The notes beneath the pieces are model-generated. The model ran no database searches, had not been told where the DNA came from, and worked only from the letters and a program-made list of their open reading frames with translations. The position numbers and the translations under genes were made by a program. From sequence record PZ445421.1: a stretch of DNA of 59,835 nt; one strand, given 5' to 3'. Source of the DNA: a phage. Below are positions 39,328 to 52,720 of this stretch, in pieces (the stretch's first letter is position 1; every line of letters begins with the position of its first letter).

Positions 39328-40275
39328 TTATTCACTAATATCTGTTGGATCACGGAAACTTTGATGCGTGGGAATACGCAATTTGTCTTTCATACCGTGA
39401 GCAAAGAATTTCCATTTAGAAATCTTCCCAATGAATTCATCAGGATGCTCAAAATAATATTTACGTTCTTCGTGCGTAAGACGACCAGCACCTACACGCA
39501 TCTCTTGCCCGACTTCAATAAGATCTTCAAGGCCTTCTGGTACTGTAAGCACACGTACATCAAATGAGCCAACCATACCATTTGGAATCATATTTTCCTG
39601 ATGGGATGAACGGAACGTCTGTCCTAATTCGTTAATCTGAGCCTCATTTGCATTGGTGCAACCTTCAATGATACGAATGATCTCGCCTTCACCATCAGTG
39701 AAACGTTTAATGCGGAGATAACCGCCTTCACGCTGCGTACTACGGCCCCATTTATATTTCGCTTCAAGGTCACGAATAATAACGCCTTCGTATCCCATAT
39801 CGAGCCAAATATTTTCCCACTCCAGCAGTTCTTGTTCGTTGTTGACCACATACAACGGCACAAGTTTCACGTCCATCAACTCGCCGTTAGCGTGGCATTC
39901 GTCCACGTACTTCTTGAGCATATCATAACGCTCTTTGTACGGTAGATGTGCAACATTTGGTTCGCACAAATCGAACACATGCCACGTCCAAACGTATTCA
40001 CCTTCAATTTTAGATGTTGCACTACTTGTTTTGCGACATAAGTCAAAGTCCGTTTCGTCCCCAACGGCAAGCTCACCGTCCATACCATCATAGATGGGAG
40101 ATTCAAATACCTTTGCGACCTGCTTATTTGCAAAAGATTTAAGACTTCGTCCAACAAGCTCCCCAAACGGTTTCATCCCACGAACGCCGTCAATTTTAGG
40201 CATAATACCTACAGGATATTTCTGTTTAGCTGAATCCCAATCTGTTGCTAGAAAAGGACGAAATTTTTTAGTCAT
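39328..40275 (-). CDS. ATP-dependent DNA ligase
   Basis: Adenylation motif I 'MPKIDGVRG' (KxDGxR); ATG 40275 with SD 'GGAGGG' (track start 40290). Confidence 0.85.
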   Translation of the reverse strand: MTKKFRPFLATDWDSAKQKYPVGIMPKIDGVRGMKPFGELVGRSLKSFANKQVAKVFESPIYDGMDGELAVGDETDFDLCRKTSSATSKIEGEYVWTWHVFDLCEPNVAHLPYKERYDMLKKYVDECHANGELMDVKLVPLYVVNNEQELLEWENIWLDMGYEGVIIRDLEAKYKWGRSTQREGGYLRIKRFTDGEGEIIRIIEGCTNANEAQINELGQTFRSSHQENMIPNGMVGSFDVRVLTVPEGLEDLIEVGQEMRVGAGRLTHEERKYYFEHPDEFIGKISKWKFFAHGMKDKLRIPTHQSFRDPTDISE

Positions 40276-40801
40276 CTGAACCCTCCACATGCAAATTCGT
40301 CATGTATAGATTTTCTCATATCATCTAACCATTCTGAAGCAAGAGCTAAACCTTCATCCGTAAATGGAAACACCTTCTGTTTACGTTTACCATTAACTTG
40401 AATTGTGGCGCACCAACGCTCATAACCATTATTGTTTACAAACCGAGATACACCTTTTACACCGGAAGTGTTGTTAGCCTGAATAATTTATTACAGTTAT
40501 TTTGGCTTGATGTGGCTTTTCTAATATTACACCATCTGTTATCAAAACCTTTCCCGTTTTTATGGTCTATTTCAACTTGAGGATCTTCCCCTGTCATCCA
40601 TTTCCAAATGACCCTGTGAACAAAGTAATCGCGTCCTTTAAGACCTACATACTTATAATTTAGACCATAATACCCAGCTTCCGCTCCAGCAACTCTTCTC
40701 CGCCAACTTTTACGCCAACTAAGAATGCCAGTTTCCGCGTTATAATCCAATAACTCTTTTAATTCCTGTTCACTATAAGGAATAGGTTTAAATCGAGCCA
40801 T
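40272..40801 (-). pseudogene. HNH-AP2 homing endonuclease split across two reading frames
   Basis: HNH frame 40457..40801 ('EIDHKNGKGFDNRWCNIRKATSSQN'); the AP2-like part ('NNTSGVKGVS...NGYERWCATIQVNGKRK...') is in another frame from 40487 to a TGA overlapping the ligase ATG. Confidence 0.5.
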
Positions 40802-41378
40802 TGAAATTTACCTTTGTGTGTTCCCGAACAAGAAGTTTTAACTTCCTAACCCAAGATTGCTGTTTCTCAATGTTAACTTTCTTCGGTTTAGGAATAATGG
40901 ATTTTGCTGTAGCTACTTTTAATTTATCGTAGTCCATGCGACGTCTACCTGTTCGCATGTGCATACCCGCAATTTCATCACACTTGTCTTGTGCAAGACT
41001 ACGGGAATCCATCCTACCTGAATGACCTTTAACATGACGGAACTGGAAACTAAGCCTATTCTCAACGATAGTATCCATGAACCATTTATATATTTGCTGC
41101 TCTTCTCCTCTCGGTGGACGTTTACCTTCGAACATATGGATAGCTGCTTTGCAATCCGTCTGGAACAATATAACGTCGTTTGTGTAGATAAGTCCAGCCT
41201 CTATACCATGATATAAACCGTTAGCTACTGCAATACATTCAACTACGGTATTATCTGTGTGACCATGCGCAGGGCCACCAAAAGCCTTCTTACCACGCTT
41301 GGAGGCTACCCAGATTCCATAGCCTCCACATTTAGTACGGTGACAAAACGACGCATCCGATATTATCGTGATGAGCAT
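40788..41378 (-). CDS. rnhA: ribonuclease H
   Basis: 'ISDASF...GGYGIW' N-terminal block and 'HVKGHSGRMDSRSLAQDKCDEIA' C-terminal block typical of RNase HI. Confidence 0.8.
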   Translation of the reverse strand: MLITIISDASFCHRTKCGGYGIWVASKRGKKAFGGPAHGHTDNTVVECIAVANGLYHGIEAGLIYTNDVILFQTDCKAAIHMFEGKRPPRGEEQQIYKWFMDTIVENRLSFQFRHVKGHSGRMDSRSLAQDKCDEIAGMHMRTGRRRMDYDKLKVATAKSIIPKPKKVNIEKQQSWVRKLKLLVREHTKVNFNGSI

Positions 41379-41804: not shown

Positions 41805-41884
41805 GTTATTGCCCTCGTTGTTTGCTATTTGCTTAGGGGTAATTTACTAGGAACTTAGTTCGTTGTAAATACCCCTAGCTGATA

Positions 41885-42490
41885 TTAAAATTTCTTACCG
41901 TGTTCCTGGGCGCGGTTCTCACGCTTATGGTCTGCACGGTTCGAGTTATATGCACGCTTGTCGCCCAGCGCCTGCTCCAGTGGCCAACCCCAGCCAACCG
42001 CCCAGTAAATCATATCCAGTGCGATAGCCAGCTCGAACGCTGCGATATCTAACGTTTCGTTATTATCTTCGTTGGAGTGAGGAACCTGCATAACCTGGTT
42101 CTTACGCACACCCTCCAACCCTGCGCTAATGTGCTCGTGCAGATCCGCATAATACTGATAGAAGTTTACATCCGTTTCAAACGCCGGCGGCGTGTCGTTA
42201 GCGCCTAAACGGTATACAGCGTCCAGCGCTTTCTCCAGATCCCACTTCTTATGACCGAAGAAGTCATAGATACGGATTGCAGCGTCCGCCAGCTCGACTA
42301 GCTGATTGGTGTATTGTGATAAGTGATCGTCCTTATCACCAGTCTTAAAACCAGTGTATGACTCAGATACTTCAGAATGGATCAGCGCGATTGTTGTACC
42401 GTCCGGACGCACTGGTTCATCCCACCAGCCGGCCTTGACATTGTGGTTATAGATTTCGTCGCGTAATACGTTGGGGTTTTCAATTTGCAT
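41885..42490 (-). CDS. hypothetical protein (possible NTP pyrophosphohydrolase-like)
   Basis: Track ORF to 42598; ATG 42490 with SD 'AGAGGA'; function guess is weak. Confidence 0.4.
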   Translation of the reverse strand: MQIENPNVLRDEIYNHNVKAGWWDEPVRPDGTTIALIHSEVSESYTGFKTGDKDDHLSQYTNQLVELADAAIRIYDFFGHKKWDLEKALDAVYRLGANDTPPAFETDVNFYQYYADLHEHISAGLEGVRKNQVMQVPHSNEDNNETLDIAAFELAIALDMIYWAVGWGWPLEQALGDKRAYNSNRADHKRENRAQEHGKKF

Positions 42491-50722: not shown

Positions 50723-51146
50723 GCGGGTATCTCAGTGGCCGAACTTCACACTTATCGCCAACCCACTTAAAGCCCAGGATCATAACAGCGTTACCTTCCG
50801 TATCAGGACACACGTCAAAGCAACTGTTGAACCCTTTACTGTGCATATACTTGTCCAGCGGAATCACACAATCCACATCTAACAACCAGTACCCGAAGTA
50901 AATGTCAACAGTAAACATCATCCCAAGCATCGGAGCCGACCAGCACATATACATCCGCCCGTCATCCAACTTCTTGACAGCATTCGGCCGCAACATCAGG
51001 CCAGCCGCCTTCCACGCTTTGACCACATTACTTAGGCTGTCATTATGCTGTTCTAATATGTCTACCGCTTTGGCGTACATTTCTTCGTTATAACCGAACA
51101 TTTCCTGTACGTGTGCGTGCGTTATTTCAATATTACTATTCCGCAT
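50526..51146 (-). CDS. hypothetical protein (first gene of the leftward operon)
   Basis: Track ORF to 51197 (TTG); ATG 51146 with SD 'GGTGAGG'. Confidence 0.5.
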   Translation of the reverse strand: MRNSNIEITHAHVQEMFGYNEEMYAKAVDILEQHNDSLSNVVKAWKAAGLMLRPNAVKKLDDGRMYMCWSAPMLGMMFTVDIYFGYWLLDVDCVIPLDKYMHSKGFNSCFDVCPDTEGNAVMILGFKWVGDKCEVRPLRYPRGKARRAYIEDGVVRWCDVQKRRMGANHITHIKECLVRLQTNNSGNVQLQQELQELIEYIDQFGA

Positions 51147-51312
51147 AACCTCACCCTTGATAATAATAATCGACCGATTTTGAAATTCAGTTGCCAAGTT
51201 TTAATTTATGCGAAGTTTTTGCTATTTGCAATTGTGACATTTTGCGGTGTTTGTATGTGCAATGTTTTTGCTTTTGCAAAAATTACAACAGTCTGAAGGT
51301 GAGAAATTGTAC

Positions 51313-51520
51313 ATTTATAAAGATCGGTGAAAAAATGCACAATTTATAAAGACCCCGTAATACATAAAACGGCGAAGCGAAGTGTATGAAAAATAAGGGA
51401 AAATTTCGAGGGTTTGGGGGAACGTGTGAATTTATAAATTTTATAAAGGGGTCTCGTAGGGGTCGTCAGTAGACAACTCAAAAACAAAAAATCTTTATAC
51501 AATTTATATAAATACACACA
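51313..51520. repeat. AT-rich region with repeated ACAnTTTATAAAGA / TTTATAAA motifs and GGGGTC direct repeats
   Basis: TTTATAAAG at ~51314, ~51353, ~51441; GGGGTCTCGTAGGGGTCGTC at 51448-51467; (CA)n-like run near 51513. Confidence 0.5.
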
Positions 51521-51559
51521 TACACACATTTTTTACCTTATTTTTCATGCACTTACCTC

Positions 51560-52120
51560 CTTTCATTTCGTATATTAAGCGTTAATACATGAGCAATATA
51601 ACATATATTTGTTGCGCAACGACTGTGTGTTTTCTAACCAATCGAAAGATTGCTTTATATACGTCCGCGCGTCTAACACAAAAGAAAAGTAGATTGCAAG
51701 CGATTTTTGCTGATGTAACTCTCGAAGTGAAAGCGATTTGCGAGGTTGAAATTTTGTAGCCCGAAAACGATTCTATTTTATGGTATAAATGTCGGATTTT
51801 TCGGTGAAAGCTGGCTTTTCGGTGAGGTTGGGTGGCTGGGATCGGGGTAACGGGTAGCCCATAAAGCGAAAATAGCCGCGAAAACGGGGCACGTAGCGCG
51901 ATTAAATGGTTGGATCGGTGTAAGGGTGGCGGTGAGGGGCGAAAATGCCGCAAAATCGCGTACAGGGAAGCAGGGAGTGGATGGCTGTAAGGGCGTATAA
52001 GGCGACTAAATTGGAGTCTATGGTAATGTATGGAAGAAGGATTCAGGTTCTTAGAGCGCGAATGGTGGAGCTATGGGTGAGGAATATGTGGTCAGCAGGG
52101 TAACGCGGGAGGTGGTGCGG
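51560..52120. other. ORF-poor, strongly purine/G-rich (plus strand) region with many short direct repeats
   Basis: Repeats TTTTCGGTGA x2, GCGAAAAT x2, TGTAAGGG x2, GGTAACG x2; the minus strand is C/T-rich and G-poor. Confidence 0.45.
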
Positions 52121-52122
52121 GT

Positions 52123-52159
52123 ACAAAAACGAAAACGCCCCGTTGGACTTCAACAGGGC
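52123..52159 (-). terminator. rho-independent terminator (minus strand)
   Basis: Minus strand CGCCCUGUUG-aaguc-CAACGGGGCG followed by UUUUCGUUUUUGU. Confidence 0.65.
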
Positions 52160-52184
52160 GCGGATTCTAAAATGGTTTTAGAAG

Positions 52185-52433
52185 TTATTTACAAGTTAAT
52201 AGTACCGCCCAGGTATTATCTGGAAGCGTACCAATTCCACGGATTTTCAACTGGAGCGACTGGTGCTGCATGTTGTAGTTGTCTAGTAACTCCTGGGCCG
52301 CGGCAGCGGCGTTCGCTTCACTGTTGAGGCTGTAGTCGTTACTCGTTACCGCGCACATACCGAGACCAACTGCTTTGAAGCGCAAACCTTTGGATTGAGT
52401 CGGTGCGAGTGCTTTGACATGGATAGCTTGCAT
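52185..52433 (-). CDS. small protein (82 aa), paralog of 52963..53211
   Basis: Shared N-terminus 'M(A)QAI..K.LAPT.S.G.R.KA' and shared C-terminal pattern with the second copy. Confidence 0.55.
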   Translation of the reverse strand: MQAIHVKALAPTQSKGLRFKAVGLGMCAVTSNDYSLNSEANAAAAAQELLDNYNMQHQSLQLKIRGIGTLPDNTWAVLLTCK

Positions 52434-52462
52434 ATTATATATCTCCGTTACAATTTGAAAGG

Positions 52463-52720
52463 TTAGCAGTTTTTTAACAGGTTGATGAAGCCCGCCAGCG
52501 TGGACGCTGTTGCAACCAGGCGGCCTATAGTATGCAGTTCCGCGTGAACTTTACCGTCGTCAAATACAGTTAAATAAACGTTAAGACCATTGCAACGGAC
52601 GCGATATTTGCGCGCGTTATTACCGAAAGTTTCTAGCTCTGCGGTGATAGTCGCGAGATTAGCTATACGTTTTCCGATAATACGGCGAGTGATAGTGGAC
52701 TGGTTTAATACTGTAGACAT
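52463..52720 (-). CDS. hypothetical protein (85 aa)
   Basis: First gene downstream of palindromic promoter module 1. Confidence 0.5.
   Translation of the reverse strand: MSTVLNQSTITRRIIGKRIANLATITAELETFGNNARKYRVRCNGLNVYLTVFDDGKVHAELHTIGRLVATASTLAGFINLLKNC

Follow-up and report, generated by a model that had tools for sequence, protein, structure and literature searches.

Free-standing homing endonuclease genes (HEGs) of T4-like phages, such as SegF and MobE, are located within or beside essential genes, and their flanks are co-converted when they spread. The endonuclease I-HmuI of the Bacillus phage SPO1 is intron-encoded and contains a helical/HTH DNA-binding part at its C-terminus. The HNH-AP2 homing endonucleases of bacteria, phages and ciliates are a well-established family, for which PMC10448857 cites Magnani et al. 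2004. In the phage ICP1, the ORFs gp115 (HNH) and gp116 (AP2) were interpreted as parts of a single HEG that a frameshift had inactivated, and the HEGs of this phage were described as 'unstable due to frameshifts' (Barth, Dunham and Seed 2023, PMC10448857).

The window (the whole stretch of phage DNA that was analysed, 59,835 nucleotides) was found to contain a split gene which, with a probability of about three in four, is a recently inactivated HNH-AP2 homing endonuclease carrying a real one-base deletion, that is, a case of ordinary early decay and not of a new mechanism. The layout resembles the 'IPA-HNH' HEG gp115/gp116 of ICP1, in which an N-terminal HNH ORF is likewise followed by an AP2 ORF with the breakpoint between the domains, whereas the ICP1 gene, compared here by its description, belongs to a Vibrio phage, contains an HNH region too divergent for Pfam HNH_3 and occupies another genomic location.

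Over 2.1 kb around the endonuclease, the window was found to be 100% identical to MZ501068.1, the record of Escherichia phage FritzHoffmann (Bas20; Queuovirinae, Nonagvirus), and in this region the window coordinates equal the record coordinates minus 520. All genes at the locus are on the minus strand, and the order of transcription was found to be a putative DNA-binding protein, RNase H, the homing endonuclease bas20_0045, an ATP-dependent DNA ligase and a RecA-like ATPase. The RNase H gene (40788-41378) is directly upstream of the endonuclease and shares its last 14 nt with the endonuclease start. In the GenBank record, bas20_0045 ('putative homing endonuclease') is the sole annotated HNH gene, and no other HNH gene was found in the window by tblastn with the intact protein, by the family HMM in six frames or by Pfam on 30 other ORFs, so that these searches gave no counterpart for the label 'second HNH endonuclease' of the earlier note.

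The upstream piece (40457-40801, annotated as bas20_0045) was found to contain the ATG at 40801-40799 and 114 codons, followed by a TAA at 40459-40457, 182 nt upstream of the ligase ATG, which is the premature stop of the shifted reading. The downstream piece (40272-40487), unannotated in GenBank, was found in the -1 frame, which is open from 40487 to 40275 (71 codons), reads IIQANNTSGVKGVSRFVNNNGYERWCATIQVNGKRKQKVF...ACGGFR and encodes an AP2/ERF-type domain. Its TGA at 40274-40272 overlaps the ATG of the ligase at 40275-40273 as ATGA. The earlier note had placed the stop of the HNH frame at 40457 and an AP2-type segment in another frame, and both were recovered at these coordinates; its 28-nt stretch open in both frames (40460-40487) was found to be exact, and the ATGA overlap that it described was confirmed and is present in the intact copies as well.

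The open -1 frame is not due to chance, since the tail of 216 nt stayed open in only 0.3% of shuffles and both pieces match one family. PHROG phrog_99 was found to be colinear over the two pieces, with positions 110-205 on the first followed by positions 208-267 on the second. The family profile, which was built from 37 homologues and was also run on the six-frame translations of the window, was likewise colinear, with positions 4-107 (E 2e-44) followed by positions 107-165 (E 6e-14).

The first piece was found to contain the Pfam HNH_3 domain (PF13392) at residues 59-102 (40496-40627), with a score of 38.1 bits against a cut-off of 24.8. In the alignment of 36 homologues, the residues H80, N88 and N104 were invariant and all of them are located upstream of the lesion, the codon of N104 being 40492-40490. 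Positions 43-118 of the family profile matched I-HmuI (PDB 1u3e) with an E of 3.7e-10. The HEG of the FritzHoffmann type differs from I-HmuI in being free-standing and in its AP2/ERF-type C-terminal domain.

The C-terminal domain was found to be kept in 36 of the 36 aligned homologues, 13 of which contained a precomputed PF00847 hit beside HNH_3. The Pfam AP2 model (PF00847) gave no match on the 71-aa fragment or on the full protein of phage JenK1, even at E<=10, and this sets the FritzHoffmann and JenK1 sequences apart from other members of the HNH-AP2 family; the assignment therefore draws on the profile of the family and on the fold. Positions 111-165 of the family profile matched the solved AP2/ERF domains of WRI1 (E 3.4e-10), TEM1 (E 7e-6) and AtERF1 (E 4e-3). 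In the AlphaFold (AF2) model of the intact JenK1 protein (pLDDT 88.8), the C-terminal part contained three strands together with a long helix, so that the domain is predicted to be folded like AP2/ERF, as a three-stranded sheet on a helix, as well as being homologous to it. The protein thus shares with the HNH-AP2 endonucleases and the plant AP2/ERF proteins the order of HNH followed by AP2 and a fold matching TEM1, WRI1 and AtERF1. The label 'AP2-like' given previously to this segment stood at the level of family profile and predicted fold, and it did not stand by the Pfam AP2 model on this sequence. The intact enzyme (176 aa, JenK1) is an I-HmuI-like N-terminal and HNH part joined to an AP2/ERF-type domain.

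The two domains were not found in one reading frame in the window, owing to a 1-nt deletion, and were found in one frame in JenK1 and in the contigs L004, L009, L010 and L011. JenK1 and four other public contigs contain the gene at the equivalent site as an intact ORF of 176 aa, and the other copies found with this ORF came from IMG/VR, two metagenome contigs and one genome contig. The JenK1 HEG (AKA61084.1 / YP_009219324.1) is a single ORF of 531 nt at the equivalent site between RNase H and ligase, with 99% DNA identity, and it has the start, the ATGA junction and the GGAGG in common with the FritzHoffmann copy. The pairwise alignment was found to contain a single gap, JenK1 TGTAATAAAATTATTCAG versus FritzHoffmann TGTAATAAATTATTCAG, at which one A of AAAA is lost (context AATAAAATT versus AATAAATT), as well as 4 substitutions across the element and three amino-acid differences (E10Q, V75A and T132A). 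JenK1 accordingly has AAAA and one 176-aa ORF, whereas FritzHoffmann has AAA, a 114-aa ORF and an orphan fragment of 71 codons.

The lesion, AAA (TTT on the plus strand) at 40487-40489 where the other copies have AAAA, is the only disrupting difference from the intact copies and shifts the downstream part to the -1 frame. The deleted A is one codon past N104, the last invariant HNH residue. The alignment with intact HNH-AP2 relatives that the earlier note had proposed thus gave a 1-nt gap against JenK1 and the four contigs, and the lesion, which had been expected within the 28-nt overlap, was located at its upstream edge.

Both alleles were also sought by a pattern scan of IMG/VR, JGI metagenomes and GTDB genomes. 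The A3 allele was not found elsewhere in these collections, and all other copies contained A4, a 176-aa ORF and the GGAGGG...ATGA junction. In a collection of 15 billion proteins, the 90% cluster of the HEG contained 45 members, and among the members listed all were of 176 aa except FritzHoffmann's own. In the same collection, the exact JenK1 protein was found on 43 contigs and the 114-aa FritzHoffmann protein was found once, in its own GenBank record.

A second broken copy was observed on the 1.6-kb Logan contig DRR596573, in which an A5 run (window 40557-40561) is shortened to A4 and the frame ends at the equivalent stop. This break may reflect a separate case of decay or, as the contig is short and of low quality, an error.

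The deletion in FritzHoffmann, if real, is very recent, as no private substitutions were found downstream of it. The same pristine sequence would also be seen if the phage truly had AAAA and an intact 176-aa gene and a base had been dropped from the consensus during sequencing or assembly; a lesion of a single homopolymer base, present in no other sequence, and the second split copy, which likewise falls in an A run as errors would, are compatible with that. Indels in the Illumina consensus of a 4-nt run are rare at 50-100x. The BASEL genomes were sequenced on an Illumina NextSeq 550, typically at 50-100x, and assembled de novo, with ambiguities settled by PCR and Sanger sequencing (PMC8594841). 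The depositors also annotated the truncated ORF as it stands. An assembly error is therefore possible but less likely than a real recent deletion because of the Illumina reads at this depth, and it stands as the main rival, with a minor share of the probability.

The geometry of the two frames would also fit a -1 shift within the 28-nt overlap, by programmed ribosomal frameshifting or by transcriptional slippage, which would yield two products, a short HNH protein and the HNH-AP2 protein in full length, and the conserved ATGA junction at the end of the downstream frame would suit such an arrangement. No X XXY YYZ heptamer was found anywhere in frame A, however, and the sole run of at least 5 nucleotides in it was the A5 at 40557-40561, outside the overlap, in which the homopolymers were of 3 nucleotides or fewer. 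Transcriptional slippage would need a run much longer than three A. The downstream 216 nt gave a minimum free energy of -47.8 against -44.6 +/- 4.1 for the shuffles (z -0.79) in pseudoknot-free folding. The two-frame layout was not shared by the relatives, which were single-frame except for the one short contig broken elsewhere. Programmed frameshifting is accordingly all but excluded, as neither a slippery heptamer nor a notable RNA structure was found and the split lacks conservation. The frameshift-regulated option of the earlier note thus failed on the slippery site, the structure and the conservation of the split, and its option of a decaying homing endonuclease is favoured by the 1-nt deletion in the A4 run, the intact orthologues and the lack of frameshift features.

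The truncated product was found to contain native residues at positions 1-105, followed by out-of-frame residues at positions 106-114 (LFRLTTLPV), and to have lost the C-terminal domain. The native part comprises the N-terminal DNA-contact region and the complete HNH motif, and because these are kept the truncated product may retain, to judge from its domains, some residual nuclease or nicking activity. Such a truncation could in principle have been advantageous and maintained, either as an HNH-only protein or through the loss of the HEG activity or of the coupling between HEG and ligase, with a domesticated nuclease or relief from self-toxicity as examples. In keeping with this, the truncated ORF still has its start and its N-terminal region, and none of the invariant HNH residues is missing; the second, independent truncation reaches the equivalent stop codon, and phages are known to co-opt HEG domains (PMC10448857). 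No truncated lineage was found, however, with one genome and one short contig standing against dozens of intact copies; the C-terminal domain is kept in all 36 aligned homologues, and the AP2 fragment lacks a start of its own. A selected truncation is accordingly held to be improbable, and a retained function of the HNH-only product is considered less likely.

Expression of the AP2 fragment alone was also considered. The sole start in its frame is the GTG at 40373, which would leave 33 aa of helix, and the purine-rich AGAAGG at this GTG overlaps the start codon without a spacer; this candidate was rejected.

On the favoured reading of a recently inactivated gene, bas20_0045 is to be annotated as a frameshifted pseudogene of a JenK1-type HNH-AP2 homing endonuclease, and the orphan AP2 fragment is worth recording, as is the true start of the ligase, 72 nt upstream of the GenBank start. 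For users of the BASEL collection, this means that the element, intact in JenK1, is probably dead in FritzHoffmann.

The alignment of 9g, JenK1 and FritzHoffmann placed the insert at 40255-40783 (529 bp when compared with 9g and other HEG-less Nonagvirus phages; in JenK1, 530 bp), which is within the ligase gene, after its codon 6, and not in an intergenic spacer. The embedding of the element in the 5' end of the ligase itself was missed by the earlier reader. The ligase of 9g reads ATGGCTCGATTTAAACCTTATCTAGCAACAGATTGG, corresponding to MARFKPYLATDW, and begins with an ATG that overlaps the RNase H gene end. The first 18 nt of this ligase (MARFKP) were found as the start of the endonuclease in FritzHoffmann and JenK1; in the window this original ligase start, an ATG and five codons, is located at 40784-40801 with an overlap of 14 nt with the RNase H gene end.

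At its 3' end, the insert was found to contain GGAGGGTTCAG-ATG-ACTAAAAAATTTCGTCCT, which provides a new Shine-Dalgarno sequence and a new ATG for the ligase, and the recoded N-terminus of the ligase is MTKKFRPFLATDW (MTKKFRP). The Shine-Dalgarno GGAGG (40282-40286) is located 6 nt upstream of the ligase ATG and is conserved in all intact copies. The ligase (39328-40275, 315 aa) starts at the ATG of the ATGA overlap, and the start given in GenBank (MPKIDG) is 72 nt further in.

The ligases of HEG-less outgroup phages were found to start with MAFKPHLATD (Seurat), MSKFKPFLACD (Klebsiella phage Kpn2-P2) and MPFKPHLACD (Vid5), all with TTTAAACC. These starts indicate that the uninterrupted site is ancestral and that the HEG has its first six codons from the ligase. 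A secondary deletion as the origin of the HEG-less state was ruled out, as the ligases of Seurat, Vid5 and Kpn2-P2 start with M..FKP.LA like that of 9g. A covariation of F and Y between the N-termini of HEG and ligase (L004 versus FritzHoffmann) was also considered as a proof of duplication and set aside, since single-nucleotide changes are too weak for this purpose.

The element shares with the HEGs of the SegF/MobE type the presence or absence at a fixed site, a short co-transferred flank and a position at or inside a replication gene. It differs from them in that the HEG of FritzHoffmann and JenK1 takes the start and six codons of the host gene and brings a recoded 5' end with a Shine-Dalgarno sequence. 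No description of this captured-start arrangement, nor of the element in Queuovirinae, was found in a non-exhaustive search of the literature. Tentatively, the layout may represent a distinct strategy, in which the HEG captures the start and six codons of the ligase and returns a recoded 5' end, a stronger Shine-Dalgarno sequence and the ATGA, though the odds are against it. If this were true, loss of the HEG would need near-precise excision, the target in the element's own genome would be erased by the recoding, and the FritzHoffmann truncation would be a natural experiment in which the ligase is uncoupled from translation of the HEG. We would not call the locus a new system; the split is better described as a new instance of a known phenomenon and the embedding in the ligase as a tidy variant of the habit of free-standing HEGs.

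The intact enzyme would be made from the original translation start of the ligase. Its N-terminal region and AP2 domain would recognise the uninterrupted 5' end of the ligase gene in a co-infecting HEG-less phage, with the putative target around TTTAAACCT/TATCTAGCA as judged only from the comparison of empty and occupied sites; in the junction of RNase H and ligase of 9g, the target is expected around CGATTTAAACCT/TATCTAGCAACAG. The HNH motif would then cut or nick this site, and recombinational repair would copy the element in. In the occupied allele, the insert splits this site and the downstream half is recoded (TTTAAACCTTAT to TTTCGTCCTTTT), which would make the allele immune.

In FritzHoffmann, translation would end after 105 native and 9 foreign residues and the AP2 domain would not be made. 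With the AP2 domain, target recognition would be lost, and on these sequence-based grounds homing by the FritzHoffmann element is most probably abolished. Ribosomes would halt 182 nt before the ligase ATG, and any translational coupling through the ATGA would be lost. The ligase would then be made from its own GGAGG (40286-40282), well placed 6 nt upstream; the viability of the phage implies that this GGAGG is sufficient or that the ligase is not needed on K-12.

The insert of ~530 bp was found to be absent from 15 of the 18 matching Nonagvirus records and present in the remaining 3 (FritzHoffmann and two JenK1 entries), so that it varies between presence and absence at one precise site among collinear close relatives. 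Between FritzHoffmann and JenK1, the element contained 4 substitutions in 530 nt (0.75%), whereas the RNase H and ligase flanks contained 61 in 1521 nt (4.0%; Fisher p 7e-5), a difference of the kind left by lateral movement. The flanks of FritzHoffmann were closer to those of the HEG-less ESCO3 (97.7%) than to those of JenK1. The low-divergence tract between FritzHoffmann and JenK1 was found at ~40178-40884, that is, the insert and ~100 bp on each side, with 5 substitutions and the indel in 707 nt. Taken together, the high similarity of the element, the flanks nearer to HEG-less phages and this tract point to a recent homing event that left a short co-conversion tract.

The locus offers a snapshot of the HEG life cycle, with a recent spread followed by a first-hit inactivation. 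JenK1 and FritzHoffmann form a ready pair for testing homing into the 5' end of the ligase gene of HEG-less Nonagvirus phages, for example ChristophMerian (Bas19) or 9g, and with the pair one could also ask if the 7-deazaguanine (dG+)-modified DNA of Nonagvirus phages is cut by an HNH-AP2 enzyme. The association of the HEG with the site itself is old, as a metagenomic phage that is ~73% identical throughout was found to contain an intact HEG, 73% identical, at the equivalent position and with the ATGA overlap.

The copy of the HNH-AP2 homing endonuclease gene (HEG) in FritzHoffmann was found to differ from the intact copy of phage JenK1 at three codons, all of them non-synonymous (E10Q, V75A and T132A; window positions 40771, 40574-40575 and 40406, respectively), with no synonymous differences between the two. 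V75 and T132 were also found to be present in other natural copies of the HEG, so that these two represent standing variation rather than decay. Another split copy of the FritzHoffmann-type HEG, carrying an independent break, was found at positions 1034-1563 of the public Logan contig DRR596573_286866 (L005). The lesion was found in an A5 run that had lost 1 nt (CATAAAAACGGG to CATAAAACGGG), again giving a 114-aa ORF whose stop is shared with the truncated ORF of FritzHoffmann, followed by an AP2 part downstream of the lesion in which the original frame is still perfectly coding. The split of this copy may be due either to genuine decay or to an error within this short contig.

The earlier note had called the HEG the second HNH endonuclease, and the first one thus implied was not located in the whole window. 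No paralogue of the HEG was found in the window by tblastn or by the family HMM, no HNH match came up when 30 other ORFs of the window were scanned with Pfam, and the GenBank record contains only one annotated homing endonuclease. These searches may have overlooked an HNH endonuclease of a divergent type. The record was also found to contain about 1 kb without an annotated CDS (window ~51146-52183; record 51666-52703), where the only ORF of at least 90 aa (51582..51953, minus strand) had no Pfam match.

The adjacent DNA ligase is annotated in GenBank (bas20_0044) as starting with MPKIDG, right at the KxDG adenylation motif, and the ligase in the record of the HEG-less phage 9g is annotated with the same short start. 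A start at the ATG at window position 40275, with GGAGG 6 nt upstream, lengthens the protein by 24 residues (MTKKFRPFLATDWDSAKQKYPVGI; window 40204-40275, record 40724-40795). JenK1 and the HEG-less outgroup phages Seurat, Vid5 and Kpn2-P2 have ligases in which these residues are conserved, so the annotated CDS probably begins 72 nt too far downstream.

Inside the ligase gene, 17 substitutions within 98 nt (window 39588-39685) were found to separate FritzHoffmann from JenK1 and 9g, the latter two being identical at most of these positions, and the cluster looks like a small mosaic patch originating from another lineage. Downstream of the gene for the DNA-binding protein, the spacer (window 41805-41900) showed high divergence and many indels among the three phages, and its adjoining genes showed 96-98% identity.

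This HEG and ligase of an E. coli Nonagvirus were also found, at near identity, in contig37 (10,896 bp; NZ_MPDK01000037.1) of the thermoacidophilic Firmicute Sulfoacidibacillus thermotolerans Y002 (handles L012 / L009; also IMGVR_UViG_2886857978), and the HEG protein is listed under that organism in RefSeq (WP_109431645.1). The presence of this contig in the assembly is most likely phage contamination.
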